Of a stretch of DNA of 60,883 nucleotides, positions 2,471 through 60,277 are shown piece after piece; within the stretch, counting starts at the first letter, position 1; every line of letters begins with the position of its first letter. A program made the position numbers and the translations under genes. Below the pieces are notes generated by a model. The model did no database searches. It saw only the letters and a list, made by a program, of their open reading frames with translations, and was not told the DNA's origin. This DNA comes from an uncultured Gammaproteobacteria bacterium (GTDB lineage: Bacteria > Patescibacteriota > Patescibacteriia > Patescibacteriales > GWC2-42-12), in the NCBI GenBank assembly GCA_964431805.1, contig CAYSKV010000006.1, positions 1 to 60,883 on the forward strand, read 5' to 3'.

Positions 2471-3805
2471 ATGACAACTAAAAACAAGCTTAATATCGTT
2501 TATGTTCCGATTAACTCCTTACGACCCTCAGAATACAATCCGCGCCAATGGGATAATGAGGCAAAAAAGCAATTAAAACAAAGCCTTAGTCGATTCGGAT
2601 TAATTGATCCGTTGCTGGTTAATTCTGCCAAAGGCCGGGAGGGTGTGGTTATCGGCGGACATTTTCGCCTGGCCATAGCTAAAGAGCTGGGATATACGGA
2701 AGTGCCGGCGGTCTATCTCTGTATTGACGATCTGGAAAAAGAAAAAGAGTTGAATCTCCGACTTAATAAAAATTTGGGAGAATTCGATTGGGCTATGCTG
2801 GCTGGTTTTGGCAATTCCCTACTTTCCGACATCGGATTTTCCAGCGAAGAACTAGATAATGTTTTTGGCATTGACGAAAGCCCGGAAATATTTGATTTGG
2901 CTAAAGAGCTAAAAAAATTAAATATTAATAAGATTGAAATTAAAAAAGGAGATATCTGGCAATTAGGAAATAATCGCTTGATGTGCGGCGACTCGACAGT
3001 TGAGGCTGAGATGCTCAAACTTATGGATGGCGTAAAAGCCGACATGTGCTGTACAGACCCACCCTACCTTTTAGATTATCTTAAGGGGAAAAAGAAAAAT
3101 GGCCAGGCGATCACGGGCTTTGGTTACAAGCGCGATCGGCGGTATTTAGAAACTGACGTGTTGCCACCCAACTTTACCGAAAGCTGGATGGCGAACATCT
3201 CTAAAATCGCTCAGCCTGATTTTTCCATTATCGTTTACGAAAACTGGAAAAATATAAGGACTATTTGGGGTGAAATGGAAAAATATTGGAAAGTAAAAAA
3301 TATGATAGTTTGGCATCTTCCTAATCGAGTCCAGGGATTCGCGGCCAAATATAAATTTTTCAACAAGCACGATATTGCCATGGTCGGACAATCGGGCAAC
3401 ATCAATTTTAACATCAAGCCCGAAGACGAGCTTCTGCAAAATGAATATGAAACCGCGCTTTACGCTACTAGCGGAAAACCGCAGTGGGAATCGTATAAAA
3501 AAGGAAAAAAATATTGTCCGACAGATTTCATTGAGTATAAATCAGCGGATAAAAAGAATTCCGGCCAAGGAGTTGTTTTCGGCACTAAACCTTTGGAAAT
3601 TTTAATTCCTTATATTAAAGTCCTAACAAAACGCGATGCGATTATCGTCGAACCATTCGGTGGAAGCGGATCAACATTAATTGCCGCCCAGAAAATGAAT
3701 CGACGCTGTTTTCTAATGGAAAAATCGCCGATCTATGCCGAGGTAATTAGAAAACGCTGGGAAAATTTAACCAACCTTAAAGCGAAAAAATATGAAGGCA
3801 AATAA
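2471..3805 (+). CDS. ParB/Srx N-terminal domain fused to an N4/N6 DNA methyltransferase
   Basis: LRPSEYNPRQW...VIGGHFRL (ParB-like); DPPY catalytic motif; EPFGGSGSTL SAM-binding motif in beta-class order. Confidence 0.92.
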   Translation: MTTKNKLNIVYVPINSLRPSEYNPRQWDNEAKKQLKQSLSRFGLIDPLLVNSAKGREGVVIGGHFRLAIAKELGYTEVPAVYLCIDDLEKEKELNLRLNKNLGEFDWAMLAGFGNSLLSDIGFSSEELDNVFGIDESPEIFDLAKELKKLNINKIEIKKGDIWQLGNNRLMCGDSTVEAEMLKLMDGVKADMCCTDPPYLLDYLKGKKKNGQAITGFGYKRDRRYLETDVLPPNFTESWMANISKIAQPDFSIIVYENWKNIRTIWGEMEKYWKVKNMIVWHLPNRVQGFAAKYKFFNKHDIAMVGQSGNINFNIKPEDELLQNEYETALYATSGKPQWESYKKGKKYCPTDFIEYKSADKKNSGQGVVFGTKPLEILIPYIKVLTKRDAIIVEPFGGSGSTLIAAQKMNRRCFLMEKSPIYAEVIRKRWENLTNLKAKKYEGK

Positions 3806-4208
3806 AGAAAAGCAAATGCTGCTTGAGCAGTTAAAAAAGACTCCGATTATCCAAATCGCCTGCGAAAAGATTGGTTTAAGCCGAGCTACCTATTATCGTT
3901 GGCGCCAGACTAATTCAAACTTTGCCAAAGCAGCTGACACCGCCATTATTGAAGGTTATTTACTAATTAACGACATGGCTGAATCTCAACTAATTTCAGC
4001 CGTTAGAGATAAAAATTTTTCAGCTATTGTTTATTGGCTTAAGCATCATCATCCGACTTATACTAATCGGCTAGAAATAATTTCCCGACTTCAACAATCG
4101 GAAGAATTAACGCCTGAGCAAACAGCGACAGTGCAAGAAGCTCTGCGCCGATCTTCTCTATTGATTGATCAAAAAGTCACGGATAATAAAAAATATGATA
4201 AAGAATAA
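3792..4208 (+). CDS. HTH protein in terminase-small-subunit position
   Basis: IACEKIGLSRATYYRW HTH followed by helical region; overlaps both neighbours. Confidence 0.75.
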   Translation: MKANKEKQMLLEQLKKTPIIQIACEKIGLSRATYYRWRQTNSNFAKAADTAIIEGYLLINDMAESQLISAVRDKNFSAIVYWLKHHHPTYTNRLEIISRLQQSEELTPEQTATVQEALRRSSLLIDQKVTDNKKYDKE

Positions 4209-5217
4209 ATTATTAACAGATCAAAAATTAATGGACAGAATTGCTCAAGATAAAAAGGTTCGCGCCGCTATCAGTCGAGAAAATCATCTTTGGTTCTTTA
4301 ATATTTATTTCCCTCACTATTCCTTTTATCCTCCGGCCTTGTTCCATCGGGAAATGTTCGAGCTTACGCAGAGAGACGATCTTCGGCTTCTTACCATCAT
4401 GGCTTTCCGCGGTTCAGGCAAATCAACGATTATGAATCTGTCTTATGCGCTATGGTCAGTCTTGGGGAAATTTCAAAAGAAATTTCTAGTTATTGCCAGT
4501 CAAACTCAGAATCAAGCCGAAGGACATTTTTCCAGCATCATTAATGAGTTAAAGAATAATGACCGCTTAAGAGCCGACCTCGGACCCTTCGAGGTCGGCC
4601 AAGATCCTTATTCCGTGCTACTCAAAAATTTCAATGCCAAAATAATGTTCATCTACAATGGGCAAAGTATCCGGGGTATGCGCCATGGTCAGCATAGAAT
4701 AGGTTTGATTATCTTGGACGATATTGAAGACAGCTGGTCAATCCAATTCGAGCGAAACCGAAATGCCACGTATAAATGGTTTGAAACCGAGGTCATGCCG
4801 GCCGGAGATTCTAGCACTACGATTGTAATTCTGGGAAACTTATTAGACGAGGATTCTTTCATTATGCGTATCAGAGAAAATATTAAGAGTGGAAAAATGC
4901 CTGGCATATTTAGAGCCTATCCCTTACTTGATGATTTAGATCAGATTCTCTGGCCGGAAAAATTCACAAAAGAAGACGTTGAACAACTTAAGAAAAGCAT
5001 CGTAGACGAAACAGTTTGGGAAAAAGAATATCTTTTAAAGATTTATAAGGAGATTACCTGTATTGGTGAATTGCTTGATGAGTCCGGACAAAACCCTGCG
5101 GACAAAAAAAACAGCCGAAGCAAAACGGCTGTTCATTTAGGAAAATATGTGATCAGCGCACCGACTATAGAGTTATCAAACAGAGAACTAGCAAGAATAC
5201 TTAGCAAATTCAACTAA
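4165..5217 (+). CDS. Terminase large subunit-like ATPase, without C-terminal nuclease (start possibly 4192)
   Basis: Walker A AFRGSGKST, Walker B IILDDIED, IRGMRH and LGNLL motifs; ORF ends shortly after LWPEK...EYL. Confidence 0.8.
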   Translation: MIKKSRIIKNMIKNKLLTDQKLMDRIAQDKKVRAAISRENHLWFFNIYFPHYSFYPPALFHREMFELTQRDDLRLLTIMAFRGSGKSTIMNLSYALWSVLGKFQKKFLVIASQTQNQAEGHFSSIINELKNNDRLRADLGPFEVGQDPYSVLLKNFNAKIMFIYNGQSIRGMRHGQHRIGLIILDDIEDSWSIQFERNRNATYKWFETEVMPAGDSSTTIVILGNLLDEDSFIMRIRENIKSGKMPGIFRAYPLLDDLDQILWPEKFTKEDVEQLKKSIVDETVWEKEYLLKIYKEITCIGELLDESGQNPADKKNSRSKTAVHLGKYVISAPTIELSNRELARILSKFN

Positions 5218-5315: not shown

Positions 5316-5717
5316 TTATATACTAAATTGAAATTTCCAGATATTAAATTTTATAGGATTAGTTGGCTTATTAAAAATTAATACTGCTGAAATTATTAAA
5401 ATATATAATAACCCCCAAAAGCAATCGAAAAATAACCTTTGTATAATCTCAATCGAATTGTTGCCGTATAGTTGTAGAACATGAACGTTGATTGGCAAAT
5501 AATAGAGAAAGTTGTAAACAAAATATAATAAAATAAAATACAAAATAATTCTTAAATATTTTCCGAATTTATGATTTTTATTATTATAGAAAATATATAA
5601 AGCAGACAAAAGCAAAATACTAAATAAATAAAAAATAAGTAAATTACCTAGAAAAAACAGATAGAGATAAAAAATGAATAGCAGGAAGCAGATTTGAATA
5701 GTTTGTTTTTTTAGCAT
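5316..5717 (-). CDS. Hypothetical membrane protein
   Basis: About four hydrophobic segments. Confidence 0.6.
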   Translation of the reverse strand: MLKKQTIQICFLLFIFYLYLFFLGNLLIFYLFSILLLSALYIFYNNKNHKFGKYLRIILYFILLYFVYNFLYYLPINVHVLQLYGNNSIEIIQRLFFDCFWGLLYILIISAVLIFNKPTNPIKFNIWKFQFSI

Positions 5718-5775
5718 AAATTTTTATTAAATAATTATAATTATTTTTTAGTCTTGATTTCGTCCATATAGTTAC

Positions 5776-6624
5776 TTATTTCCAAAATTTAAATTTCTTG
5801 AAAAAGTTTGTTATTTTCTGAAAAAAGTTGTTTATTTTATTGAAAAAACTTTGATTATTTTTCTGTTGTGGAATGGTAGAGCTTCCATTTATTAAAGTGT
5901 CTTTCTCTGTTTGTATCTCCAGAGATGATGTGGCAATAACTGGGGAGGAGGTAGCGACAATAACAGGTGAAGAAGATGGCACGGTTGTTGAGGCCGTGTT
6001 TTTCATTTCTTCAACTTTGGATTTTATATTAGTCGCACTTACAACTTTTTTAGATTGAATCGCCGAAATAGGTTGCGAAACTTCATCGGCTTCATTTTTA
6101 ATTGCTTCAGAAATTTTATCTAACGCGGACAAATATGATTTTGCTTCTTCGATGCGTAATGAATAACATTCCAAGGTGGGCGAATAAATTCCTAACAATT
6201 TAAGCCGATCATTGTTGTCTTGAACTTCTATTATTGATTGATTTAATGAGTTTAAAGAATTCTTTGTTTTTACAATTTCTGAATTTAAAAGTTCTTTTGT
6301 TGAAATTAATAAACTTGTATCAATTTTTCCGGTGTCAACATAGGCGATAACTACAAAATAGGCTAAATTACTTGCTTGGCTAATTGGACAAGCATTTGAT
6401 TTTTTACATTCATCGGTGTTACTAAAACTAACCAAACTATCTCGCCAGCCGTCATTGCAAATTGCGCTTCCGTCATAATCCGCGCCAGCGTTGCAATTTA
6501 CACCGAGATGATAAGAACACGCGCCGGAAGTGGCATAAACAGTTATTGGAACTATAAATAAAAAAGCTGCTAATAATATTAAATTGTAGCTAAATATTTT
6601 TTCCATAACTTTGTTTGTTTCCAC
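5776..6624 (-). CDS. Secreted protein with Cys-rich N-terminal module, coiled coil and amphipathic C-terminus
   Basis: Signal peptide; SGACSYHLGVNC...ICNDGW; S/T-rich linker; FFNKINNFFQKITNFFKKF tail. Confidence 0.75.
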   Translation of the reverse strand: METNKVMEKIFSYNLILLAAFLFIVPITVYATSGACSYHLGVNCNAGADYDGSAICNDGWRDSLVSFSNTDECKKSNACPISQASNLAYFVVIAYVDTGKIDTSLLISTKELLNSEIVKTKNSLNSLNQSIIEVQDNNDRLKLLGIYSPTLECYSLRIEEAKSYLSALDKISEAIKNEADEVSQPISAIQSKKVVSATNIKSKVEEMKNTASTTVPSSSPVIVATSSPVIATSSLEIQTEKDTLINGSSTIPQQKNNQSFFNKINNFFQKITNFFKKFKFWK

Positions 6625-6808
6625 TACAGTAAACGTCGTTATGTGAAATTAATTATAAATTTTTACTGTTTAGCACTTAAAATATAGCTTAAAACAAACC
6701 GGAAGTAAAGCTAAAGTTACCTACAGTTTATCTACTTTAGGGGGTCTGGACGCCCCGAGAACCTAGCGTCATCAATGTGGTTATAAGTAATAAATAAAGG
6801 AAAAAATT

Positions 6809-8170
6809 ATGAAACAAGACACCACCACATTGATGCCCCAAACAACAACCTTGAGGCAAAATCGAGGGACCCCGGAGATAATCGGGGTGCCTTCCATTAA
6901 CTATGTCCTTTACGCGAGAAAATCAACCGAATCGGAGGAACGACAAGTCCTTTCCATTGATTCACAAGTTAAGGAGATGCTTCAACTTGCCGAAAGAGAA
7001 AATTTGAATGTAGCCGAGATTAGAAGAGAATCTCATTCAGCTAAGGATACCGGCCAGAGAAAAGTTTTTAATGAAATTGTAAACGATATTCGAAAAGGAT
7101 TATTCAATGGAATCTTAACCTGGGCGCCAGACCGAATCGCCAGGAATGCCGGCGACCTCGGAGCCATAGTGGATTTGATGGACCAAAAACTATTATTAGA
7201 AATTAGAACATATGGACAAAAATTTTCTAATAACCCAAATGAAAAATTTCTGCTCATGATTTTAGGATCACAGGCCAAGCTGGAAAATGATAATCGTGGC
7301 GTTAACGTAAAGCGAGGTCTTCGAGCTAGGGTGGAAATGGGATTCTGGCCGACGCTGGCCCCAATCGGATATATGAATCAGAATCGTATGGATAAAAAAG
7401 GACAGGTTTTACCGGATCCTGTCCGCGCGCCAATTATTAAACAAATATTTGAAAAAGTTGCTTATGAAAAAGCCAGCGGTAGAAAAATATACCACTGGTT
7501 AAGATATGATCTAAATTTCCATACCAGAGGTAATAAGACTCTGAGCTTAAGCGGAATTTTTAGACTCTTAGATAGTACCTTCTATTATGGTACTTTTGAA
7601 TACCCAAAAGATAGCGGCAATTTTTATCAGGGCATACATAAACCGTTGATCACAAAAGAACTGTTTGAAAAAGCGCAAACACAGATAAAGCGAGATCAGA
7701 TAGTTAAGGGCTGTAAAGAATTCGCCTTCACTAAACTTATAACCTGCGGTTTATGTGGCTCCACTATTAGTGGAGAAGAAAAATACAAAACGCTAAAAGA
7801 CGGAACCGCGGTTAAATATGTCTATTACGGTTGTTGCCGGGCCAAAGATAAATGGTGCAAAAATAAATACATCCAGGAAAAGGATTTAATTAATGAACTA
7901 ATAAAAATAATAGATGAAGTTGATTTAAACGAGCTAGGCGTAAAAGCCAAGTTCGAAGATGAAATTGAAAGATTTAATAAATTCCAAGGAGTGCTATTCG
8001 GCAAGGAGAAGTCGGATCTGAAAAAGAAAGAAGTCGATATCCGCACTTACGCTAAATATCTATTAAAAGAAGGGAGTATTGTTGAAAAGCGGGAGTTGCT
8101 GGGTAATTTAAGAAGTAGATTAGTTTATATGGATATGAGTATAAAATTATCAAACGATAAGAGTATATAA
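6809..8170 (+). CDS. Large serine recombinase (resolvase + recombinase + Zn-ribbon domains)
   Basis: YARKSTE catalytic Ser motif, DRIARN, APIGY, CGLCG...YYGC. Confidence 0.95.
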   Translation: MKQDTTTLMPQTTTLRQNRGTPEIIGVPSINYVLYARKSTESEERQVLSIDSQVKEMLQLAERENLNVAEIRRESHSAKDTGQRKVFNEIVNDIRKGLFNGILTWAPDRIARNAGDLGAIVDLMDQKLLLEIRTYGQKFSNNPNEKFLLMILGSQAKLENDNRGVNVKRGLRARVEMGFWPTLAPIGYMNQNRMDKKGQVLPDPVRAPIIKQIFEKVAYEKASGRKIYHWLRYDLNFHTRGNKTLSLSGIFRLLDSTFYYGTFEYPKDSGNFYQGIHKPLITKELFEKAQTQIKRDQIVKGCKEFAFTKLITCGLCGSTISGEEKYKTLKDGTAVKYVYYGCCRAKDKWCKNKYIQEKDLINELIKIIDEVDLNELGVKAKFEDEIERFNKFQGVLFGKEKSDLKKKEVDIRTYAKYLLKEGSIVEKRELLGNLRSRLVYMDMSIKLSNDKSI

Positions 8171-8227
8171 TATTTGGCTAATAATAAACATTTTATATTA
8201 TTTTAACCTATGAAAACCTATGAACAC

Positions 8228-8256
8228 TTGACATTATTTTTAGAGCATGATAGACT
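8228..8256 (+). promoter_or_regulatory. Sigma70 promoter of the R-M/CBASS operon
   Basis: TTGACA-17 nt-TAGACT with TGn extended -10; lies inside the first 20 codons of the track ORF, so the real start is probably ATG 8270. Confidence 0.7.
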
Positions 8257-8269
8257 GATATTAAACTAT

Positions 8270-9955
8270 ATGAGAAAAGACATAAAAGAAAAACTCAAAG
8301 GAATGCCAGAGTTACTCTCCATCGGTCAGGTGGCAGAGATTTTTAGCATTCACCAAGATACTTTAAGAAACTGGGAAAAGGATGGCACCCTTGTCCCCCT
8401 TAGGGTTGGCCCACGTAAGGATCGCAAATATCGCCCACAAGATATTCAAGCCATCGTGGACAAAATGGGCAGTAAACTTACTTTACCTCAGCTTGAAGCT
8501 TTCCTTTGGAAGAGCGCCGATATTCTCCGAGGGAAAATCGACAGCTCTGATTATAAAAAATATATCTTCGGCCTATTATTTTATAAACGAATGAGTGATG
8601 TGTGGGATGAAGAATATGAGTCGGTAATGAAAGAATATAACGACAAGACAATTGCTGGCGCTGATTACAATCACCGCTTTCAAGTTCCAAAAGATTGCAA
8701 ATGGGCAGTTGTTACTGAACAAGCAGAAAGCATCGGTCAAAAGTTAAATGACATTTTTGAAAAGCTTGCTAATGCCAATAGTCCGAAGTTGGACAGAATT
8801 TTTGACGATCTTGATTTCTCAAATAGAGATCGTTTTCCGAACGAAACACTCCAAAGACTCATAAATCACTTTTCTCAATATAATTTTGGTAATACTTACA
8901 TTAGTTCAGACCTCTTAGGTGATGCATACGAATATCTTATCAAACAATTTGCGGCAGACGCAGGGAAAAAAGGCGGAGAATTCTACACGCCTCGTGAAGT
9001 TGAAAAAGTCATTATTGGAATTTTAAAGCCACATCAAAAAGACCATATTTATGATCCAACCGCTGGATCAGGAGGTTTCCTACTTGAGGCATATGACTAT
9101 CTAAAACAAAAATCTGGCGAAAAGATTGCCAAGACGCTTTATCTTTATGGTCAGGAATTAAACATCAGCACTTTTGCTATTGCAAAAATTAATATGTTTT
9201 TGCACGGTCTTGATAGCGCCGATATTCGACGTGGTGACACTATTGCAAATCCTCAATTTTTGACACAAAACGGCAATCTGCAAACATTCGACATCTGCGT
9301 AGCAAATCCGCCCTACTCAATTAAGGATTGGGAATCAGAAATTTTCAGAACAAATAAATATGGACGACTTGAGGGTTACGATATGCCTCCAGAAAAAAAT
9401 GCCGACTATGCTTTTGTTTTACATATCATTAAATCAATGAATGTAAACGGCCGGGCTGGCATCGTGCTTCCTCATGGCGTTCTGACCAGGCCTAACGCTG
9501 AAGCACGAATTCGTGAACAAATACTTAAGAATGATCTAATTGAAGCAGTCATTGCTTTACCACCAAAGCTTTTTTATGGCACAGGCATCCCAGCGGCTAT
9601 TTTAATTTTCAATAAAAACAAGCCTGAAAATAAGAAAAATAAGGTGTTGATTATTGATGCCGAGAAAGATTTTCTTGAGGGTAAAAATCAAAATTCCCTC
9701 CGACCGCAAGATATAAACAAAATCGTAAAAGCATACGATGGTTATTCTGATATTGAAAAATATGCTCGTATTGTTTCACTTAAAGAGATTGAAGATAAGG
9801 GATACAGCTTAAATATCCGTGATTTTATTGACTCATCCGAAGAAGATGAATTGATTGACGTTAAAACTGTAAGAAATGATATTATTTCTCTCAAAAAAGA
9901 TTTGGCGAAATCAGACGCATTGGTCGAGAGATACTTAGATGAACTGAATTATTAA
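8270..9955 (+). CDS. hsdM: Type I R-M methyltransferase with N-terminal MerR/Xis-like HTH (track start 8210)
   Basis: LWKSADILRG, GEFYTP, YDPTAGSGG, ANPPY motifs; N-terminal LSIGQVAEIFSIHQDTLRNWEKDG. Confidence 0.95.
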   Translation: MRKDIKEKLKGMPELLSIGQVAEIFSIHQDTLRNWEKDGTLVPLRVGPRKDRKYRPQDIQAIVDKMGSKLTLPQLEAFLWKSADILRGKIDSSDYKKYIFGLLFYKRMSDVWDEEYESVMKEYNDKTIAGADYNHRFQVPKDCKWAVVTEQAESIGQKLNDIFEKLANANSPKLDRIFDDLDFSNRDRFPNETLQRLINHFSQYNFGNTYISSDLLGDAYEYLIKQFAADAGKKGGEFYTPREVEKVIIGILKPHQKDHIYDPTAGSGGFLLEAYDYLKQKSGEKIAKTLYLYGQELNISTFAIAKINMFLHGLDSADIRRGDTIANPQFLTQNGNLQTFDICVANPPYSIKDWESEIFRTNKYGRLEGYDMPPEKNADYAFVLHIIKSMNVNGRAGIVLPHGVLTRPNAEARIREQILKNDLIEAVIALPPKLFYGTGIPAAILIFNKNKPENKKNKVLIIDAEKDFLEGKNQNSLRPQDINKIVKAYDGYSDIEKYARIVSLKEIEDKGYSLNIRDFIDSSEEDELIDVKTVRNDIISLKKDLAKSDALVERYLDELNY

Positions 9956-9959
9956 AATT

Positions 9960-10832
9960 ATGAGTGTATCAACTAAATTTCAAAATTTTTGTTCAAACAT
10001 CCGCATAACAGCAAGTGTTGCTGGTGATATCTCTTATCGCTACAAAAGAATCACCAAACAACTTAACAAAGATTTTTGGGATACTGAATCAGATACATCA
10101 CATAGTTTATATGTTGGATCTTATGGCCGCGATACAGATATCCATGTTAGCGATATAGATGTATTATTTCAGTTACCATACTCTGTTTATGAAAGAATAA
10201 ATGGTCATTCGGGGAATGGTCAGTCAGCACTTCTTGCTGAAGTTCGAGACTCTTTAAGAAATACCTATAGCACCACTCATATAAGTAGTGATGGGCAGAT
10301 TATTGGAATTAAATTTGACGACGGCGTGAATTTTGAAATTTTACCTTGTTTTATAAATAAAGATGGAAGCTACACTTATCCAGATTCTAATAATGGTGGG
10401 AGTTGGAAAACTACAAATCCAAAACCTGAAATTGAGGAAATAAAAAAGACAAATGACTTATGTAATGGAAATTTAAAAAATCTTTGTAGAATGGCAAGGG
10501 CGTGGAAAGATAAATGGGATGTCCCCATGGGCGGCTTGCTAATTGATACATTAGCCTATCAATTTATAAAACAATGGGCTCACAGAAATGAATCATATTT
10601 ATATTATGATTATATGACTCGCGACTTTTTTGAATACTTAAAAAATCAGGACGAAAATAAAACCTATTGGTTAGCGGTTGGTAGCGGTCAATATGTTTAT
10701 AAAAAAGGCGATTTCCAATACAAGGCCTTACGTGGATTTAATATCTCAGAAGAAGCTATTGATTATGAGCAAAGGGAAATGCCAGCTTCGGCCAATGGCA
10801 AGTGGAGAGAAATTTATGGGACTAAATTTTAA
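9960..10832 (+). CDS. SMODS/cGAS-DncV-like nucleotidyltransferase (CD-NTase)
   Basis: VGSYGRDT...SDIDVLF nucleotidyltransferase motif, third acidic residue in FEILP, GGSWKTTNPK. Confidence 0.9.
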   Translation: MSVSTKFQNFCSNIRITASVAGDISYRYKRITKQLNKDFWDTESDTSHSLYVGSYGRDTDIHVSDIDVLFQLPYSVYERINGHSGNGQSALLAEVRDSLRNTYSTTHISSDGQIIGIKFDDGVNFEILPCFINKDGSYTYPDSNNGGSWKTTNPKPEIEEIKKTNDLCNGNLKNLCRMARAWKDKWDVPMGGLLIDTLAYQFIKQWAHRNESYLYYDYMTRDFFEYLKNQDENKTYWLAVGSGQYVYKKGDFQYKALRGFNISEEAIDYEQREMPASANGKWREIYGTKF

Positions 10833-10836
10833 TTAT

Positions 10837-11409
10837 ATGGACATAAAAAACCTTTCAATTATCAGACAGTCATTTGCAAGTACAGTTTTTACACATAAAG
10901 TCCAAGAGGTTGCATCTGAAAACCAAGAAAAAAATGTATTTATTATTAAAATAATAAATATAATACTAGTTTCGATTGTTCTTATTTTATTAATTATTCA
11001 GGCCGCAAATCCAAATAATTTAATTTTTTCTTTTATCGGTGCTGGTATTACAGCTGCTGAGATTATATTTTTGATTATTCAGCTTTCTTTTAATTTTGAA
11101 CAGAAAGTGATAATGCACAAAAACTCGGCATTAAAATATATGGGTTTACGAGACGCTTACAGATCTCTTATTACTGATGTTATGAATGAAGCTATCCAGA
11201 CGAGTGAGATTGTTAGTCGAAGAGATTTATTGCAACGAGAATATCAAATAATTTCTGATTTAGCGCCCCAGACAGGAAATAAAGAATATGCAGAAGCACA
11301 AAAAAGATTAAATAAACGCGGAGTAGTCTCTGGAGAAGATTTTACATGGTCCGACGAAGAAATAGATTGGTTTTTACCAGAAAATTTAAGGCTAAAAAGA
11401 CCACAGTAG
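10837..11409 (+). CDS. SLATT-family 2-TM effector (true start 10837; track start 10678 overlaps upstream gene)
   Basis: FTHKVQE, two TM helices, HKNSALKY..LRDAY, C-terminal LP..LR; directly follows the CD-NTase. Confidence 0.85.
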   Translation: MDIKNLSIIRQSFASTVFTHKVQEVASENQEKNVFIIKIINIILVSIVLILLIIQAANPNNLIFSFIGAGITAAEIIFLIIQLSFNFEQKVIMHKNSALKYMGLRDAYRSLITDVMNEAIQTSEIVSRRDLLQREYQIISDLAPQTGNKEYAEAQKRLNKRGVVSGEDFTWSDEEIDWFLPENLRLKRPQ

Positions 11410-11418
11410 TCCATTACT

Positions 11419-12549
11419 ATGAAAGTTAATTTATTACAAAATATTCCAAAAGATTGGGACATAAAGAAAATTAAAGATGTTCTCGACTTTGAGCAACCAA
11501 CAAAATATATAGTTGAAAGCTCAAGTTATACTCCTACTGGTGAAACAGCTGTTCTGACAGCTAATAAATCTTTTATTTTGGGTTATACAAACGAAACTGA
11601 GGGTGTATATACAGACACACCTGTAATTATTTTCGATGATTTTACTACTGACAGTAAATATGTTGATTTTCCTTTTAAAGTTAAGTCTTCGGCAATTAAA
11701 ATATTAAAAACAAAAAATACTGAAACTGAACTCAAATTTATCTATGAGTTAATGAAATTAATGAATTTTCAAATCGCAAATCATAAACGTCATTATATTT
11801 CGCAATACCAAGAACTATCTATTGTTGTTCCTCCTATTAAAGAACAGAAAAAGATTGCGGGTATCTTGTCGTCTATTGATGAGGAAATTAATATTATTGA
11901 AAATATTATAAATACGGACGAAAAATTAAAAACTGGTTTAATGCAGTCTTTGTTCGAGGGTAATTGGCCTTATAAAAAAATAAATGAAATAGCAACTGTT
12001 TTGACTGGAGGGACGCCAAGAACGTCAACAAAAGAATTTTGGAATGGATCAATTAATTGGATGTCTTCTGGTGAGGTTAATTTGCGAAGAGTTAAGAATA
12101 CAGAAAAGAAAATTACTCAAAAAGGACTCGAGGGATCCAATGCAACCATTTTACCAATAGGAACCGTTATGGTTGCTTTGGCTGGACAAGGTAAGACACG
12201 TGGGAAAGTGGCAATATTAGAAATAGAGACAACGTGCAATCAATCATTAGCCGGGATTATTACCGATAAAGAATCAGTTTTTAACGAATTTTTATTTTAT
12301 AACCTCGAAAATCGCTATCAGGAACTGAGAAATATTAGCGGTGGAGAGGGTCGTACAGGTTTAAATTTAAAGCTAATTAAAAACTTTAAAATACCAGTAC
12401 CACCCCTAAATTTACAAAAGAAAATTGCCACCGCTCTTGCTTCTATTGATGAAAGAATTACAAAAAATTTACTCTTAAAAGAAAATTTTTTAAGACTTAA
12501 GAAGGGATTAGTGTCGGATCTTTTGAGCGGAAAAGTCAGAACAAAATAA
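11419..12549 (+). CDS. hsdS: Type I R-M specificity subunit
   Basis: Two TRDs with VPPIKEQKKIA / VPPLNLQKKIA conserved regions and KKGLVSDLLSG terminus. Confidence 0.95.
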   Translation: MKVNLLQNIPKDWDIKKIKDVLDFEQPTKYIVESSSYTPTGETAVLTANKSFILGYTNETEGVYTDTPVIIFDDFTTDSKYVDFPFKVKSSAIKILKTKNTETELKFIYELMKLMNFQIANHKRHYISQYQELSIVVPPIKEQKKIAGILSSIDEEINIIENIINTDEKLKTGLMQSLFEGNWPYKKINEIATVLTGGTPRTSTKEFWNGSINWMSSGEVNLRRVKNTEKKITQKGLEGSNATILPIGTVMVALAGQGKTRGKVAILEIETTCNQSLAGIITDKESVFNEFLFYNLENRYQELRNISGGEGRTGLNLKLIKNFKIPVPPLNLQKKIATALASIDERITKNLLLKENFLRLKKGLVSDLLSGKVRTK

Positions 12550-12553
12550 TAAT

Positions 12554-15466
12554 ATGAAATTTAACGAACAATACACAATTGAATATCACATCATAAAATT
12601 CATACGAGAAAAACTCGGCTATGAATATATTCCTGCGGAAGAATTTTCTAAACTCCGTTCTTTTGAAACTGAGTATATTATCACTTCTCATCTTTTGGAA
12701 GCGGTAAAGAAAATTAACAATATTGACGATGCTGTAGCACAAAGCGTTGTGAGAGAAGTTAAAAAATCAGATACAAACGAAGCATCTCTACTCGCGATGC
12801 GAAATGGTATCAATTTGAAAGATCCAAATACTGGTAACTTCCGCGATTATAAGATTGTTGATTTTGATAATCCTGAAAATAATCATTTTGTCGTTACTAA
12901 TCAATTCTATTTTGAGGGAGCAACTGAAAACATCCGCCCTGATGTGATGATTTTCCTTAATGGCTTGCCGGTTTGTGATATAGAAGCTAAAAGTCCTACC
13001 GCTTCAAGTAGTGTCAGTTTTGAAAACGCCATTGATCAGTTAAAGAGATACGAGAAAGTCGCACCAAAGCTTTTCTTGCCTAACTGCCTTAATATCGCCA
13101 CCGATGGCCTTAAAACAGTCTACGGAGCAACTTATTCCCCAAAGCAGTACTTCCTTGCGTGGCGTGAAGATCCACAAGTGGAAAAGAAAACTTTTGAAGA
13201 CGAGCTTGATTCAACACTTTTCTTTTTACTTGATCAAAAGCAGATTCTTGACCTCATTAAAAACTTTATTGTTTTTGAAAAAAAGAAAGACGGAGTCACT
13301 AAGAAAATTACCAGATACCAACAATTTTACGCGGCCAATAAAATCGTGGCTCGCGTTCAAGATGGCGAGAGAAAGAAAGGTTTGATTTGGCATACTCAAG
13401 GATCTGGTAAGACTCTTACTATGTTTTTCACAGCTTGGAAACTTCGCTATAATCCCGAACTAAAAAATCCTAAGGTATTTATTTTGATTGATCGTATTGA
13501 TCTTGATGATCAAGTGTACGAAGAATTTGAAAGCTGGGGCGGACAAAATCTTGTAAGAGTTGAATCGCGCAAAGACCTTGAAAAGAAAATTAAAGGAGCT
13601 GATAGAGGTATCTTTATCTCAACTATTCAAAAATTCAGCGAGTTGGAAGAGATAGAAAATATTGATGGTAACGTTATTGTTCTTTCTGACGAAGCTCACC
13701 GAGACAATGAAGGTATATCAGCGATAAAGATGCGCAATGCTTTTAAAGATGCTTTCTTTTTCGGATTCACTGGAACGCCAATTGATAAATTAACGCTGAA
13801 TACTCATAGAAACTTTGGCGAAGAGGGTGAACGATATCTTGATTACTATTCAATCCAGCAAGCCATTGATGATGGCGCTACTTTACCAGTTACATACGAG
13901 GCTCGTCTTTCTAAATTCTTTATTGATGAGGAAAAAGTTGATCAGCAATTTAATGAACTCACTGTTGATTTGAATGACAAGCAAAAAGAACTGCTTACTA
14001 AAAAATACGGAAAGAAAGAGGCTCTTGTTAAATTGGATAAAAGAATGGAAGCGGTTGCTCAAGATATTATTGAGCACTACAAGCTTTATGTCTTACCAAA
14101 CGGATTCAAGGCACAGGTTGTTTGTTATGACCGCGAGGCTACGGCTAAATATAAACAGCTTTTTGATAAGCTGGTTCCAGCTGAATGGTCTGAGGTTGTC
14201 TATTCTCCTGGCGATCCAAATAGTGAAAGCGATGATCTTAAAAAATACAATACAAATAAACAGAAGCGAGAAAAAATTATTGAGCAGTTCAAAGATCCAA
14301 ATCATCCGCTTAAATTCTTACTTGTGTGCGACATGCTTTTGACTGGTTTTGATGCACCAGTTGAACAAGTAATGTATTTGGATAAACCGCTTCGCGATCA
14401 TAACCTACTTCAAGCAATCGCCCGTACAAACCGAGTATTCCCAAATAAAGGATGTGGAAAGATTATTGATTACTATGGTGTAACTAAAAATCTCTACGAC
14501 GCTCTTAATTTTGACGAGAGTGTAGTTGATAGTGCCATGGTAGATATCAACCGTCTTAAAGAAGAGTTCTCAAAAGTTATTGGCGAAATAATGGAATTAT
14601 TTGTCGGGGTTAATATCGAAGATCCATCAATAGATAACCTACGCCGATGTTTGAAGATATTTATTGAAAACCAGAGCAAACAGCAATACTTCAAGGATAA
14701 ATACAGCCGACTAAAGATGTTGTTTGAGATTCTTTCACCCGATCCATTCCTGATGGAATATCTACGCAAATTTGAGTGGATTACTAGTTTTTATTTGGCA
14801 TTCGTAAAAGAATTCCAAATTGACGACATAGACGCTTTTTCACTTGCTGAATATGGAGAGAAAATAAAGAGCTTGATTCAGCAGAAGATTGACTACGAGG
14901 GCATCACCAAAAACTTCCGAGAATTAAATATTCACGACTTAGCTACTTTAAACAAACTTGATAAACTTCCCGAAGAAGAGAAGGCTCTTAACCTTGAAAA
15001 AATGTTGAAGCGTGAGATTTCAATTAATATTGATACTCATCCGGCATTCAAGAAATTCAGCGAGCGACTTATCGCTATTCGTGTTGAATTTGAAAAGCAC
15101 CAGATTGATTTAGCAGAAAGAATAAAGCGCTACTATGAACTTCTAAACGATATAAAGACAAAGACCGAAGAAGCTAAAGAATTGGGCTACACTCTCCGCG
15201 AATACGGCCTATTTGTAATCTCTGATGAATTTATCAGCGAATCTGATAAGGATATTGTTAAGGAATTCGTAAAAGAAATGGCCGCACGACTTGAAGATGT
15301 TCTCGATGAAAACTGGCAAGATTCATCCAAGAGAGAAGAATTTTTGAAAGAAGCAAAACGAACTCTGCAAGAATTAATCCTCAAAGACTATAAGGATAAA
15401 ATAAAGGTTTCTGATTTCCACAAATATTTAAATAGATTGGTGGATGTGGTAATTAAGCGATTTTAA
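12554..15466 (+). CDS. hsdR: Type I R-M restriction subunit
   Basis: RPDV...IEAKS nuclease motif, HTQGSGKT, DEAHR, GFTGTP, MLLTGFDAP, QAIARTNR. Confidence 0.97.
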   Translation: MKFNEQYTIEYHIIKFIREKLGYEYIPAEEFSKLRSFETEYIITSHLLEAVKKINNIDDAVAQSVVREVKKSDTNEASLLAMRNGINLKDPNTGNFRDYKIVDFDNPENNHFVVTNQFYFEGATENIRPDVMIFLNGLPVCDIEAKSPTASSSVSFENAIDQLKRYEKVAPKLFLPNCLNIATDGLKTVYGATYSPKQYFLAWREDPQVEKKTFEDELDSTLFFLLDQKQILDLIKNFIVFEKKKDGVTKKITRYQQFYAANKIVARVQDGERKKGLIWHTQGSGKTLTMFFTAWKLRYNPELKNPKVFILIDRIDLDDQVYEEFESWGGQNLVRVESRKDLEKKIKGADRGIFISTIQKFSELEEIENIDGNVIVLSDEAHRDNEGISAIKMRNAFKDAFFFGFTGTPIDKLTLNTHRNFGEEGERYLDYYSIQQAIDDGATLPVTYEARLSKFFIDEEKVDQQFNELTVDLNDKQKELLTKKYGKKEALVKLDKRMEAVAQDIIEHYKLYVLPNGFKAQVVCYDREATAKYKQLFDKLVPAEWSEVVYSPGDPNSESDDLKKYNTNKQKREKIIEQFKDPNHPLKFLLVCDMLLTGFDAPVEQVMYLDKPLRDHNLLQAIARTNRVFPNKGCGKIIDYYGVTKNLYDALNFDESVVDSAMVDINRLKEEFSKVIGEIMELFVGVNIEDPSIDNLRRCLKIFIENQSKQQYFKDKYSRLKMLFEILSPDPFLMEYLRKFEWITSFYLAFVKEFQIDDIDAFSLAEYGEKIKSLIQQKIDYEGITKNFRELNIHDLATLNKLDKLPEEEKALNLEKMLKREISINIDTHPAFKKFSERLIAIRVEFEKHQIDLAERIKRYYELLNDIKTKTEEAKELGYTLREYGLFVISDEFISESDKDIVKEFVKEMAARLEDVLDENWQDSSKREEFLKEAKRTLQELILKDYKDKIKVSDFHKYLNRLVDVVIKRF

Positions 15467-15468
15467 TT

Positions 15469-16035
15469 ATGAAAAGAAAAATCGAGCTACATAAAAAGAA
15501 AGTCGAATACACCCTAAAGGTGAGCAAGCGAGCTCGAAGAATGAGACTGGCTATCTATTGCGATGGCAACTTTGTGGTCACCGCGCCGCGAAATATGAGT
15601 GAGAATATTGTTGAACAATTCATAATCAGAAAATCGCAGTGGATACTTGATAAATTAGAATATTTTAAAAGCATCTCTGGACGGATATTTTTAAGAGGTA
15701 CTAAAAAAGATTATAAGGAATACAAAGACCGAGCCCTTGATTTAGTACAAAAACGGATTGAGTATTTTAATAAAACTTACAGTTTTAGATTTAATAAGAT
15801 AAATATTAAAAATCAAAAAACTCGCTGGGGAAGTTGTTCAAAAAAAGGAAATCTCAATTTTAACTACAAAATTGCCATGCTACCTGAAAAATTAGCTGAT
15901 TATATTATTGCTCATGAGCTTTGCCATTTAAAAGAATTTAATCATTCACAAAAGTTTTGGAATTTGGTCGCAAAAATGATGCCAGACTATCAAAATTTAA
16001 AAAATGAGTTAAAAAAGGGAGGACTAAAATATTAA
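15469..16035 (+). CDS. YgjP/DUF45 (SprT-like, M48) zinc metallopeptidase
   Basis: RWGSCS and HELCH (HExxH); typical position after hsdR. Confidence 0.9.
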   Translation: MKRKIELHKKKVEYTLKVSKRARRMRLAIYCDGNFVVTAPRNMSENIVEQFIIRKSQWILDKLEYFKSISGRIFLRGTKKDYKEYKDRALDLVQKRIEYFNKTYSFRFNKINIKNQKTRWGSCSKKGNLNFNYKIAMLPEKLADYIIAHELCHLKEFNHSQKFWNLVAKMMPDYQNLKNELKKGGLKY

Positions 16036-16169
16036 TAATTTACTATGCGGCGCAGAGATTTATATTTTGATAAAAAATAATATTGAAAATTAAGATTTAT
16101 ATTATAAATCAAACATAAAAGCCCCGTGAAAACGGGGCTTTCGGGTCTGCCGATAATAAGTTTTAGATG

Positions 16170-16243
16170 CGGGACGGACGGGACTCGGACCCGCGACCTC
16201 TGCCGTGACAGGGCAGCGCTCTAACCAACTGAGCTACCGTCCC
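16170..16243 (-). tRNA. tRNA-Asp(GTC)
   Basis: Cloverleaf; anticodon arm ctgcc-ctGTCac-ggcag; T-loop reads TCCGAGT. Confidence 0.95.
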
Positions 16244-16320
16244 AAATTATATTTTTATAACAAAAAGTCTCTAAACGAGACTAAAATTATCCTAACAAAT
16301 TAAGTGTTTTAAGTCAATCT

Positions 16321-17097
16321 CTATAATTTTTTTCTTTGCCTTGAAGCTTCAAACAAAATTATAGCTGTACTAACCGAAACGTTCAATGAGTCAATTTTCC
16401 CTCTCATCTTTATTTTTATCTTTTCGTCAGCCGTCTTAAGCCATTCATCGCTTAAACCTTTATCCTCGGCGCCCATAGCAATGGCGCAACCAACTTTGTA
16501 ATTAATTTCCGTATATTCTTTTTTTGTGTTCGGCGTAGTGGCAAATATTTTTATTTTATTAAGTTTACAAAATTCAACTGTCTCGCTGATTGAACTTAAA
16601 ACCGTCGGTACAGTAAAAACCGTGCCTTGACTGGCGCGAATAACATTTGGATTATAAATATCAGTTTTAGGATCATTAATAATAACCGCATCAACTCCCA
16701 CTGCATCTGCCGTTCTTAAAATCGCGCCTAAATTCCCCGGTTTTTCTACCGCTTCTAAAACAATAATTAATGGCTTCGCGCTTAATTTTATATTTTTTAA
16801 TTTTTCTTGTCTGGTTTTTGCCACGGCTAAAAATCCATCCGGATTTTCTCGATAAGCTATTTTGTCAAAAATTTTTTTTGAAACTTCAATTATTTTTTCT
16901 TCCTCGAACCCTAGCTCTTGTTTTATATAGTCCTGACAATAAAATAAATTTTCTATTTCAACCCCGCCTTTTAGCGCTAAATTTATTTCGCGCCAGCCTT
17001 CAATTAAAAACAAACCTTGCTGTTTTCGCTCTCGACTGGTCTCGCGCAACTTAACAAGGTTTTTAATTTTTTCATTCTGCACACTTTCTATAATCAT
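16321..17097 (-). CDS. TrmH/SpoU family RNA methyltransferase
   Basis: EKPGNLGAILRT, GAEDKGLS, DSLNVS SPOUT motifs. Confidence 0.93.
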   Translation of the reverse strand: MIIESVQNEKIKNLVKLRETSRERKQQGLFLIEGWREINLALKGGVEIENLFYCQDYIKQELGFEEEKIIEVSKKIFDKIAYRENPDGFLAVAKTRQEKLKNIKLSAKPLIIVLEAVEKPGNLGAILRTADAVGVDAVIINDPKTDIYNPNVIRASQGTVFTVPTVLSSISETVEFCKLNKIKIFATTPNTKKEYTEINYKVGCAIAMGAEDKGLSDEWLKTADEKIKIKMRGKIDSLNVSVSTAIILFEASRQRKKL

Positions 17098-21528: not shown

Positions 21529-24500
21529 TTAAAATCCTAAAATCTGATTTATCTTAGCTCTAGTATATGGGCCAACAAAACCTGTGCCCTTTTCGAGATC
21601 AAGAGGATTTAAAATTTCTTTGAAATATTTTTCTTGAAACTTTATTACCGCAGCCCTAGTTAATGGACCGAAATAATTAGTTTCTTTACCGGGTGAACCT
21701 GGGCCGGTTTTAGCGAGCTGAGTATCTAAACCTTGGTTTAAGAAAATCTGCAAACGTTTTATGTCATTATCGGTTTGCCTGTATCTTAAATTTTTAGTAA
21801 ATGGCTGATTTAAAATTTTCTTAATTGTTTCTTGAATATTTTTTTCAGGCTCAACTAAATTAGTATTTTCGATTGTGTTACCAGCCGAAGTATCACCTGA
21901 AACAGATTGCTCTGATTTTAAATCATCTTTTGAATTTTTTAAAATAATTGAATCTGAAACGACTTTAGAATAATAACCCCAGCCAGTATGATATTTAACA
22001 TAAACTATGTAAGTGCCATCTGGGCAAACATCATTATTGCCACAGAGATTCCACGATTTATTGTCTTCGTAAATAAATTGAGAGGCATCTTTAAATTCTG
22101 GGTTATGAGAAATTGAAACATCAATAGTGTTAACGCCGCTATATAGATTTAAATTAACTTTCGGCGAAGAGGTAATTCCCGCGCCATTATTAATTAAAAC
22201 ACTAAAATCATTTCGTTCTGGTTCTCTGGGCGGATTATAGTCGATGATGACGCTGCCACCGTTATTTCCTATGCCAACTTCCCTTGTGATAGTAACCACG
22301 TAGGTTGTAGTTGAATTATCTTCAGCCGTCACAATAATATTAATTGTGTTTTGACCAACTGATAAATTAACGCTAGTCGGTCTGCCGCTAGATACAGGCG
22401 AACCATTAATAGTAATAGTTGAACCAGCATCAGTAGCTGTTGGAGTAATGTTTATAATCGCCACACCATTCTCAACACTAGCCGTATAATTTAGGGTGTC
22501 ACTAGAAAAAATTGGGGTTAATGTAACATTATCAATAATTAAAGAACTAACAGAAGAGTCTGAACTAAGCGCAGATGGACCAGACTCAGGTATAGTTAAA
22601 GAAAAAATCGTACCTACGTCTAAAACCGATGTCGAGGTAGTTCTGGCGGTTGTCATGCCGTAAAATTTATCATTAACAAAAGTTAAAGCGCCAGGAGAAA
22701 AAACATTGCTGCTATTTTCTTGGTTATACAAATAATACTCCGTTCTAAAATTACTTCCGTCGGGGTCAATGGAAAAAATTGTGCCTGAACCAGGCATAGT
22801 ATAAACGCCGAGTATAATCCCAACCAAAGCGGTAAATTGGTTTCCGCTAGTCATGCCATAAAGTTTACCGTTATTAACAATCATTGAGCTCCAAGGATAA
22901 GATCCGTCTTCTCCTCCAGCAAAAGAATGTAAAACAGTAAAATCACTTCCATCAGTATCAATGGAAAAAATTGTACCCTTGCTATTGGCTCCACCTAAAT
23001 AAGTTAAGCCATAAAGCTTATCATCTATAAGATTTAAAGCGCTGGCCAAAGGCTCGTCGCCATCATTAGTCCCGCCCGCAAAAACATGCAAGACGTTATA
23101 TTCTGAACTTTCAAGATCAAAAGAAAAAACAACGCTTGAATCCTCTTCGGAAAGAGGCGTACCATTAAGAACATTCACAAGATAAGAAGCAAAAGCATTG
23201 CCGTTAGTCATGCCATAAATCTTGCCGTCTGAAAAAGTTAAATAACCATAAGGATCTGCGCCTAATTCTCCGCCTTGAAAATTATAAACAATTTGAAAAT
23301 CGCTGCCATCTGGATTTATGAAAAAAATTGTACCCTTGTCATTAGTTCCGCCTCTTTCTGTTGTGCCGTAAAGTTTACCGTTATAAGGATATAACTGGCT
23401 AAAAGGACACATACCATCTATTGGATTTCCCTCGCCATCTACTCCCACGGTTAAATCGGCAAAAATATGTAATCTAGTAAAATCTGTTCCATCAGTATTC
23501 ATAGAAAAAAGTATTCCGCCCCCGCTACCCAGCGAACCACTACCTTCTCCTGGACCAGAAATAACCGTTCCTCCATAAAGTTTATCCTCATAAAGGGTTA
23601 ATGAGCCTAAAGAAAATATGCCATCATAATTGCCAGTAAAATTATGTAATATTCTAAAATCAGTTCCATCGGCCTTAACGGAAAAAATTGTACCAGCTAA
23701 AGCACTTACTCCACCTAAACCCGTTGTACCATAAAAAGTTTGCCCATCCTCAGAAGGAATTAAGCCAACGGTAGGAAATATGCCATATTGTCCAATCAAA
23801 CCAAAACGATAAAGTATTGAATAGTCGCTAGCGTCAGCTTTAATAGAAAAAATAATTCCATCACCACCACCATCTTCATTTGTCATACCATAAAGCGTTC
23901 CGTCGGAAAGTATTAATGAACCATAAGGTTCTCTGCCGTCAGTTATTACTCCTTCATCGCTAGAATTTGTTCCAAAAAATTCATGCAAAAGAGTAATGCT
24001 GCCGCCAACCGCGGGAATGGAAAAAATTGTACCAACGTCATTATTGCCGCCAGCTCTAGTCATACCATAAAGCGTTCCGTCGGAAAGTATTAATGAACCA
24101 TAAGGTTCTCTGCCGTCATCAACGCCGCCTACAAATTCATGCAAAGTAGTTATAGCTCCACCAGCGGCCGGAATGGAAAAAATTATGCCAGAATTTAAAT
24201 CACCGCCGTTAGTAGTCATACCATAAAGTGTACCATCAGAAATAATTAAAGAACCTTGAGGATAAGATCCATCATCAACCCCGCCGGCAAATTCATATAA
24301 AAGAGTAATGCTGCCGCCAGCCGCTGGAATGGAAAAAATTGTGCCAGCGTCATTATCGCCGCCAGCTCTAGTCATACCATAAAGCGTCCCGTTAGAAATA
24401 ATTAAAGAGCCATATGGAGAGGCTCCGTCATCAACCCCGCCCGCAAATTCATGAATTAAATTAAAATCTGAGCCATCAGTATCTATAGAAAAAACTGTAC

Positions 24501-59615: not shown

Positions 59616-59690
59616 TGGAGCGGGTAAGGGGAATCGAACCCCTCTCTCCAGCTTGGAAGGCTAGCATAAAAGCCACTATACGATACCCGC
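59616..59690 (-). tRNA. tRNA-Gly(TCC)
   Basis: Cloverleaf, encoded CCA; loop ctTCCaa. Confidence 0.95.
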
Positions 59691-59702
59691 TAAAAATCTT
59701 TG

Positions 59703-59773
59703 TCGGGCTGCTGGGAATTGAACCCAGTCAACATGCTCCCAAAGCATGCGTACTACCGGTATACGACAGCCCG
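59703..59773 (-). tRNA. tRNA-Pro(TGG)
   Basis: Cloverleaf; catgc-ttTGGga-gcatg. Confidence 0.93.
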
Positions 59774-59793
59774 AGTTCAATTAATAATTGAAA

Positions 59794-59868
59794 TGGTGCC
59801 GGGGGTGAGAATCGGACTCACGACACAATGATTTTCAGTCATTTGCTCTACCACTGAGCTACCCCGGC
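59794..59868 (-). tRNA. tRNA-Phe(GAA)
   Basis: Cloverleaf, encoded CCA; T-loop reads TCCGATT. Confidence 0.93.
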
Positions 59869-59883
59869 CTAATTGAATTCTTG

Positions 59884-59956
59884 TTGCGGGGGTCGGATTT
59901 GAACCGACGACCTCCAGGTTATGGGCCTGGCGAGCTGCCAACTGCTCTACCCCGCG
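59884..59956 (-). tRNA. Initiator tRNA-fMet(CAT)
   Basis: C1-A72 mismatch; anticodon arm ccagg-ccCATaa-cctgg. Confidence 0.9.
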
Positions 59957-59993
59957 ATACTACGCTAAAGCTTCGTATCGCAAGCTTAGCGAA

Positions 59994-60230
59994 TTAAACC
60001 AATCTTTTTTTAAAGAATGCATTTCCAGACCCAGTTTTTAGATATTGCTCAAAATAAGCTGCAATTGTTTTGTTTTTAAACATGCCAATCCAAACAACTT
60101 TAATGGGTAATCTATATTTTGTGTAATCAACTAAACTATTTTTATGTTGTACTATTCTTTTTTTAATATTTTCAGTTAAACCTATATAATAAGTTTTATC
60201 TGAACATAATAAAATATAAACGTAATACAT
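59994..60230 (-). CDS. Short stand-alone GIY-YIG nuclease (track start 60242)
   Basis: MYYVYILLC...YYIGLT..I..RI.QH...AAYFEQYLKTGSG. Confidence 0.9.
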   Translation of the reverse strand: MYYVYILLCSDKTYYIGLTENIKKRIVQHKNSLVDYTKYRLPIKVVWIGMFKNKTIAAYFEQYLKTGSGNAFFKKRLV

Positions 60231-60277
60231 AGACAATCCCATTAAGGCTTGTCCTCCATAGCTTCAGCGTAGGAGGG

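Follow-up and report, generated by a model that had tools for sequence, protein, structure and literature searches.

We analysed a stretch of 60,883 nucleotides (nt) of DNA (the window; contig CAYSKV010000006.1 of GenBank assembly GCA_964431805.1) and found that a type I restriction-modification (R-M) operon within it carries, between its hsdM and hsdS genes, a two-gene pair of the cyclic oligonucleotide-based antiphage signalling system (CBASS) type. The pair consists of a gene encoding a SMODS cGAS/DncV-like nucleotidyltransferase (CD-NTase), an oligonucleotide cyclase, and a gene encoding a SLATT_4 two-transmembrane (2TM) effector. This arrangement was confirmed as real, and close relatives of the cyclase were found almost only in such operons. 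On balance, the pair is probably a type I CBASS that acts autonomously in abortive infection, with a trigger of its own, and would be co-transcribed and co-mobilised with the type I R-M system as a second layer.

All six genes of the operon lie on the + strand. The order is hsdM (8210–9955, a type I methyltransferase gene with a fused helix-turn-helix (HTH) domain and, by the open reading frame (ORF) list and direct reading, an alternative in-frame ATG at 8270), the CD-NTase gene (9960–10832, 290 amino acids (aa)), the SLATT_4 effector gene (10837–11409, 190 aa), the hsdS specificity subunit gene (11419–12549), the hsdR restriction/translocase gene (12554–15466) and, as the last gene, one for a YgjP-like (M48/SprT-like) zinc metallopeptidase (15469–16035). 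The mechanical ORF of the SLATT gene opens at a TTG at 10678, and its real ATG is at 10837. An earlier sequence-only reading, made without database searches, had proposed this gene content and the CBASS-type identity of the SMODS and SLATT pair, and both were borne out by unambiguous Pfam and PADLOC matches. Its estimate of 3–9 nt for the gaps between genes was right about the tight spacing but not about the exact range, which is 2–9 nt (4, 4, 9, 4 and 2 nt in order).

The cyclase matched the Pfam family SMODS (1.1e-51) and the PADLOC oligonucleotide cyclase model PDLC00786 (1.8e-139), while its score against the NCBIfam model CBASS_cyclase was 109 bits, under the cut-off of 200. It possesses the catalytic set of CD-NTases, GS...[DE]x[DE]...[DE], and residues G53, S54, D65, D67 and E126 do not vary among 28 homologues. 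D65 and D67 align with two catalytic residues, D62 and D64, of CdnD from P. aeruginosa (PaCdnD). The AlphaFold2 model (pLDDT 89.7) has a CD-NTase fold, and its best neighbour in the PDB is PaCdnD (TM 0.81–0.83), which is also the sole strong sequence-profile match there (E 1e-15). PaCdnD is thus the nearest PDB relative by both sequence and fold, at 22% identity only, which hints at most at a place of the cyclase in CD-NTase clade D with the CdnD enzymes. A reading as an MNT/HEPN-type or generic nucleotidyltransferase was ruled out by the SMODS and PADLOC scores together with the CD-NTase fold. A Pfam search of the 290-aa cyclase gave no DNA-binding feature or additional domain, and the PrrC/RloC domains (ABC ATPase, anticodon nuclease) were absent from both proteins of the pair in Pfam and PADLOC searches.

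The SLATT protein matched SLATT_4 in Pfam (1e-30) and the PADLOC 2TM effector (3.4e-38), and direct reading placed two hydrophobic helices at about residues 34–55 and 61–84. The effector gene is adjacent to the cyclase gene, starting 4 nt downstream of it, and among the operon genes and their neighbours we found none of Cap2/Cap3 (E1/E2/JAB) or HORMA/TRIP13, as in type I CBASS. A SLATT gene also lies 3′ of the cyclase gene in most of the 160 related loci that were fetched. Some loci have two cyclase genes followed by one SLATT gene (L170, 5633–8397; also L029, L067 and L113), in which one protein is a 430–440-aa SMODS+AGS_C protein and the other a 274–290-aa SMODS protein, an arrangement that suggests two sensors feeding one effector.

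The surrounding genes encode a complete type I R-M system, comprising HsdM_N with an N6-adenine methyltransferase, an HsdS with two target-recognition domains (TRDs), and an HsdR with nuclease and SF2 translocase. HsdM matched N6_Mtase (2.4e-104), HsdM_N (5.8e-26) and, at its N-terminus, MerR_1 (4.5e-8)/HTH_17 in Pfam, as well as the PADLOC model MTase_I (7e-140), and the motifs DPTAGSGGF and NPPY were read directly. Methylase_S was matched twice in HsdS (4.9e-35, Pfam). HsdR has HSDR_N, SWI2_SNF2, ResIII and T1R_D3-like domains, matched PADLOC REase_I (5.8e-134), and shows GSGKT, DEAH and D...EAK. The peptidase gave a YgjP-like match (1e-47) and carries an HELCH motif. Type I R-M operons often end in a gene for a YgjP-like metallopeptidase, and the same gene lies 3′ of hsdR in L001, L006, L045, L090, L091, L113 and the Aeromonas plasmid pAV1812-2. 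Several cassette-bearing operons also have a half-size, single-TRD hsdS (about 195 aa) 5′ of hsdM, in addition to the full-length hsdS downstream (L001, 7187–7774; L006; L091; L113; L129; and Arcobacter L163, 2475–3059).

To describe how often relatives of the cyclase sit inside R-M operons, we sampled 80 loci from species-representative genomes and 80 metagenome loci encoding cyclase relatives, which gave 148 unique sequences of 55–90% identity from many phyla. Neighbouring ORFs were labelled with iterated profiles built from the window proteins, and a locus was counted as embedded when the cassette lay in a same-strand type I hsd operon. Among informative loci, 11 of 12 were embedded at a cyclase identity of at least 75%, 5 of 9 at 66–75%, 2 of 30 at 62–66%, and 10 of 70 at 50–62%. 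Embedding is therefore recurrent and not due to chance (16/21 at 66% identity or more against 12/100 below; Fisher, odds ratio 23, p = 9.7e-9). Such a count had been proposed with the sequence-only reading, and it came out positive. Three further close homologues were looked up, of which two were embedded and one (P0074, 77% cyclase identity) was free on an integrative element.

R-M systems of other types also host the cassette. In the 66–75% bin, two more loci lie directly 3′ of type II R-M genes, one with a MerR-fused C5 methylase (L096) and the other with an N4/N6 methylase and an MvaI/BcnI endonuclease, and in the 50–62% bin one more locus lies between the type III genes Mod and Res. The neighbour-joining tree contains two separate subclades with near-fixed hsd embedding. 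In the subclade of the window the pair lies mostly between hsdM and hsdS, with one member between hsdS and hsdR, and in the second subclade it lies between hsdS and hsdR. The sequence-only reading had called the hsdM–hsdS gap a known cargo hotspot; cargo in hsd operons is indeed known, but a preference for that gap did not hold, since the hsdS–hsdR junction is used as well. Embedding as near-exclusive as that of PrrC was seen in these two subclades, and the 12/100 among more distant relatives shows that it is not a trait of the whole family. Still more distant SMODS-SLATT lineages, with cyclases about 42% identical and 430–440 aa long, have the same hsd layout on Aeromonas veronii and Arcobacter plasmids, and the far clade has Dnd and bacteriophage exclusion (BREX) neighbours. 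At one sampled locus (L046, 9811–14370) the cyclase and HsdR frames are fragmented under translation table 11, although tblastn aligns both end to end; this locus may use an alternative genetic code with UGA as sense, or may hold pseudogenes.

A module with a 96% identical cyclase was found at a locus in the metagenome-assembled genome (MAG) GCA_030689945.1 (L161) and in a Logan contig (L162). Nucleotide similarity between the window and L161 runs over 8206–11951 and 12475–16042 at 86–88% identity, and the only break is in the TRD of hsdS. The limits of the module are thus 8206 and 16042; the flanks of L161 and L162 are unrelated, and other genes lie downstream in L161. Because the similarity is confined to 8206–16042, this 7.8-kb stretch behaves as one transferable unit. 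Within the break (11952–12474) there is no nucleotide similarity; this is a specificity swap through domain replacement, and such a TRD swap is typical of active type I systems. The ratio of non-synonymous to synonymous substitution rates (dN/dS) relative to L161 was 0.037 for hsdM, 0.029 for the cyclase gene, 0.069 for the SLATT gene, 0.009 for hsdR and 0.052 for the peptidase gene, so that five of the six genes are under strong purifying selection. The exception is hsdS (0.305), because its recognition domain has been swapped. A repeat search over 5500–16500 returned only short AT-rich chance matches, without an hsdS shufflon, an att-like direct repeat or a cassette-flanking repeat.

Next, the history of the cassette was compared with that of its host operons. 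Identity of the cassette between hsd operons is 60–90%, while that of their HsdM and HsdR proteins is no more than 25–40%. Across embedded loci, cyclase identity correlated with SLATT identity (Spearman 0.78) far more closely than with HsdM identity (0.20), and pairs of loci with 80–90% identical cyclases had a median HsdM identity of 32%. The C-terminal families of HsdR also vary among hosts (EcoR124_C, EcoEI_R_C, or neither). Close relatives of the cyclase (66–73% identity) occur intact outside any R-M system in L005, L009 and L097, one of them beside an opposite-strand Mrr-like nuclease and another beside an integrase. Among 100 informative distant relatives (55–66% identity), about 88 lie outside hsd operons, with SLATT adjacent in nearly all. 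Other, unrelated cargo occupies the same hsd operons, including DUF4145, Bro-N, Fic, GIY-YIG/DUF4357 and a ParA-like ATPase. The alignment columns contained no residues common to both embedded clades yet rare in free loci. When junctions were compared across loci, similarity began at the cyclase ATG and stopped at the SLATT stop codon, and no conserved site flanked the cassette at the compared junctions, so no site-specific insertion signal can be proposed. A scan of viral contigs found no close cyclase relatives, and there is thus no sign of a phage-borne cassette.

Taken together, the decoupled histories, the free relatives, the other cargo, the lack of shared residues in the alignment and the confinement of junction similarity to the coding sequences favour an autonomous CBASS carried as specialised cargo. 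Under this explanation, the operon would be transcribed from a single promoter 5′ of hsdM, possibly autoregulated by the HTH domain fused to HsdM, and the Hsd complex would methylate self DNA and cleave unmodified incoming DNA. A phage that escapes restriction, for instance by being modified, site-less or armed with anti-restriction, would switch on the cyclase through an infection cue of the cyclase's own. The cyclase would then make a cyclic oligonucleotide, possibly a cyclic trinucleotide, a guess made because PaCdnD is its nearest solved relative, and the SLATT protein would open the membrane and so abort the infection. Embedding would give the cassette co-expression, stoichiometric translational coupling and co-inheritance, making it cargo of the R-M operon and not its sensor.

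Several observations pull the other way. In several loci the stop codon of one gene overlaps the start codon of the next, both at the hsdM–cyclase and at the SLATT–hsdS junction, and this overlap, the near-fixed embedding and the involvement of at least six Hsd lineages together exceed ordinary defence-island clustering. By analogy, the distribution resembles the one that marks PrrC as a true guardian. PaCdnD, the closest relative with a solved structure, owes its activation to a protein partner (HORMA), and a partner-dependent cyclase would therefore not be far-fetched. The association with type II and type III R-M, together with that of the far clade with Dnd and BREX, may keep a guardian role, or the sensing of restriction products, in play.

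The alternative that survives best, although we judge it unlikely, is the PrrC-like guard that the sequence-only reading had suggested. Here the cyclase would monitor the Hsd proteins or be held inactive by them, and anti-restriction would lead to cyclic-nucleotide death via SLATT. In line with this, hsd embedding is near-exclusive in the subclade of the window and again in a second one, the junctions are overlapping or 2–9 nt long as expected for translational coupling, the cassette is also found beside or within type II and type III R-M genes, and distant SMODS-SLATT lineages are hsd-embedded on Aeromonas and Arcobacter plasmids. PrrC and the phage anti-restriction-induced system (PARIS) are established R-M guardians (PMC12707154). 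A specific protein interface, however, is hard to reconcile with cassettes that are 80–90% identical while HsdM and HsdR are about 30% identical. It is likewise at odds with the close relatives kept intact outside any R-M system and with the absence of a convergent residue signature in the embedded clades, and the type I, II and III hosts share no subunit beyond the methyltransferase fold.

We consider it very unlikely that the cassette is a selfish hitch-hiker or addiction module which contributes little phage defence and persists by riding on, or stabilising, a mobile R-M island. The module does move as a unit and adjoins a serine recombinase, a tRNA gene and phage-like genes, and a selfish benefit of embedding has been discussed by Payne et al. 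(bioRxiv 10.1101/2024.01.29.577857). Yet purifying selection on both cassette genes is very strong and the catalytic residues are invariant, the PADLOC scores mark the family as genuine CBASS cyclases and effectors, and no antitoxin-like partner is present.

Least probable of all is that the cyclase responds to what restriction produces, such as DNA ends, DNA fragments or HsdR complexes stalled in translocation, and amplifies partial restriction into abortive infection. This would account for the unrelated R-M families and types that serve as hosts and for the Dnd and BREX neighbours of the far clade, and cGAS-like enzymes such as cGAS and the cabRNA-sensing CdnE can be activated by nucleic acids. 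But Pfam shows neither a DNA-binding feature nor a further domain in the 290-aa enzyme, R-M genes are missing from the neighbourhood of most members of the family, and the idea is purely inferential. The PrrC relative RloC, which responds to DNA breaks (PMC3874168), would be a parallel for such sensing.

Returning to the autonomous cargo that we favour, the left edge of the module (8206–8269, + strand) holds a candidate promoter from which the operon could be expressed. A tandem pair of CCTATGAA at 8206–8223 starts exactly at the module edge, just 5′ of a −35 TTGACA (8228–8233), and an extended −10, TGATAGACT, follows at 8248–8256. Between the window and L161 the −35 and −10 hexamers are unchanged, whereas the 20 codons at 8210–8269 hold 4 non-synonymous changes, an amino-acid change rate several times the hsdM average. 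Since the hexamers are conserved while these codons drift, we infer that 8206–8269 serves as a promoter and that hsdM truly starts at the ATG at 8270, the start taken in the sequence-only reading. The promoter scan lists this site, in a total of 43 found against 35.3 expected from shuffles, which is not above expectation. The CCTATGAA repeats are a candidate operator for the MerR/HTH_17 domain of HsdM. One promoter for all six genes is plausible, and the terminator scan detected no strong + strand terminator inside the operon. The same scan revealed a G+C-rich hairpin of 11 pairs at 16117–16142, between the operon and a convergent tRNA-Asp gene, which is likely a bidirectional terminator. In a sludge RNA library, two exact 151-nt contigs of depth 2 lie inside the SLATT gene (10893–11043 and 11121–11271), and the rest of the operon is uncovered; these contigs are weak evidence, as they may represent either transcription or DNA carry-over, and are too thin to speak for co-transcription.

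Directly 5′ of the module lies a gene for a large serine recombinase (6809–8170, + strand) with Resolvase, Recombinase and Zn_ribbon_recom domains. A homologous recombinase, 69% identical in nucleotides, adjoins the module in L161 and L162 in inverted orientation (L161 6815–8140, − strand), and related recombinases adjoin cassette-bearing hsd operons in L008 (47% aa identity, same strand) and L006. The recombinase may mobilise the island, and it is not part of the conserved module. On the right flank of the island is the tRNA-Asp(GTC) gene (16169–16243, − strand), which was identified by ARAGORN and Rfam. Upstream of the recombinase are a ParB-like domain–DNA methyltransferase fusion (2471–3805) and a weak terminase-large-subunit-like ORF (4165–5217), which suggests a phage or mobile-element remnant beside the defence module.

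The window is chromosomal, as it carries dnaA, the gene for penicillin-binding protein 1A (PBP1A), several tRNA genes and, in part, a 16S rRNA gene (the 3′ end). The sequence-only reading had taken it for part of a candidate phyla radiation (CPR) genome, and a Patescibacteria origin is supported by its PBP1A, at least 90% identical to a Patescibacteria MAG protein. Patescibacteria are likewise the source of the most similar cassette taken from a genome (88%), and the module was found in wastewater, sludge, landfill and groundwater metagenomes. Elsewhere in the window, dnaA (32811–34157) lies at the cumulative GC-skew minimum, at about 32–33 kb, so that the replication origin of the chromosome probably lies within the window. 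Five tRNA genes adjoin the 3′-terminal 340 nt of the 16S rRNA gene, which the window end truncates, at 59616–60883 on the − strand, and a 1011-aa protein with seven GloVer 'choice-of-anchor' tandem repeats, a probable surface protein, is encoded at 21529–24564 (− strand).

Few triggers of minimal type I CBASS cyclases have been established, and a lineage that occurs almost only in restriction operons narrows the options to two, a cyclase that is co-regulated cargo and a cyclase that watches the R-M system. Should the subclade prove to be a dedicated R-M guardian CBASS, with a cyclase that reads the state of the host restriction complex or its DNA products, which we think unlikely, it would provide the first cGAS-like enzyme triggered by another immune system. 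Cultured, plasmid-borne examples of the same layout exist, such as pAV1812-2 of Aeromonas veronii, whose operon has the order WYL-M-S-SMODS-SLATT-R-SprT. The analysis also shows that a Patescibacteria lineage with a small genome possesses a mobile immune module which combines two layers in a compact form and occurs in many phyla.

Compared with known type I CBASS with a 2TM effector, the window likewise has an intact GS/DxD/E CD-NTase followed by a SLATT_4 protein. The pair differs in having no promoter region of its own and in lying inside another defence operon. PaCdnD (P. aeruginosa ATCC27853, type III CBASS; PDB 6P82/6P8J/6P8U), which among solved proteins is nearest in both structure and sequence, has HORMA and Trip13 as partners and acts through a nuclease effector, whereas the window operon contains no HORMA or Trip13 gene and its effector is a SLATT membrane protein.

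The likeness to PrrC/EcoprrI (type IC hsd), where the hsdS–hsdR junction houses prrC, is confined to layout. In each case a module of abortive-infection type is embedded in a type I hsd operon and, for the window presumably, co-expressed with it, and in both a lineage occurs almost only in the hsd context. PrrC, however, is an ABC-ATPase/nuclease, unrelated to a nucleotidyltransferase with a membrane protein, and its latency and activation by Stp were demonstrated experimentally. The cyclase family of the window, taken as a whole, is mostly free-standing.

The closest characterised layout is the RptR-HsdM-HsdS-DarT-DarG-HsdR-M48 island of enteropathogenic E. coli (EPEC) (PMC12255303). Both operons begin with an HTH regulator and end with an M48/YgjP-type peptidase, both hold two cargo genes of abortive-infection type, and both have mobility genes on their flanks. 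Together with the guilt-by-embedding survey of Payne et al., the EPEC island is a published precedent for independent cargo in hsd operons, which speaks for the autonomous reading. In the EPEC island, however, the cargo is DarTG2 and lies between hsdS and hsdR, a junction that its authors call a likely defence-system hotspot, while the cargo of the window is CBASS and lies between hsdM and hsdS. The regulator also differs, being a separate 9-kDa RptR in EPEC and a MerR-type HTH fused to HsdM in the window.

Type I R-M operons are thus already known to host defence cargo. The paper of Burroughs et al. (2015, Nucleic Acids Research) that defined SMODS and SLATT reportedly noted that they are at times combined with R-M. 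The embedding of prrC in ecoprrI has been reviewed (PMC12707154), and defence genes embedded in type I R-M, BREX and DISARM (defence island system associated with restriction-modification) operons were documented by Payne et al., who singled out PrrC as almost exclusively hsd-embedded; CBASS is unmentioned in the text and supplements of that work, and the supplements are also without SMODS and 2TM (bioRxiv 10.1101/2024.01.29.577857). Against this background, what the present analysis possibly adds is a quantified, clade-specific and near-obligate embedding of a CBASS pair, together with its portability across Hsd families.

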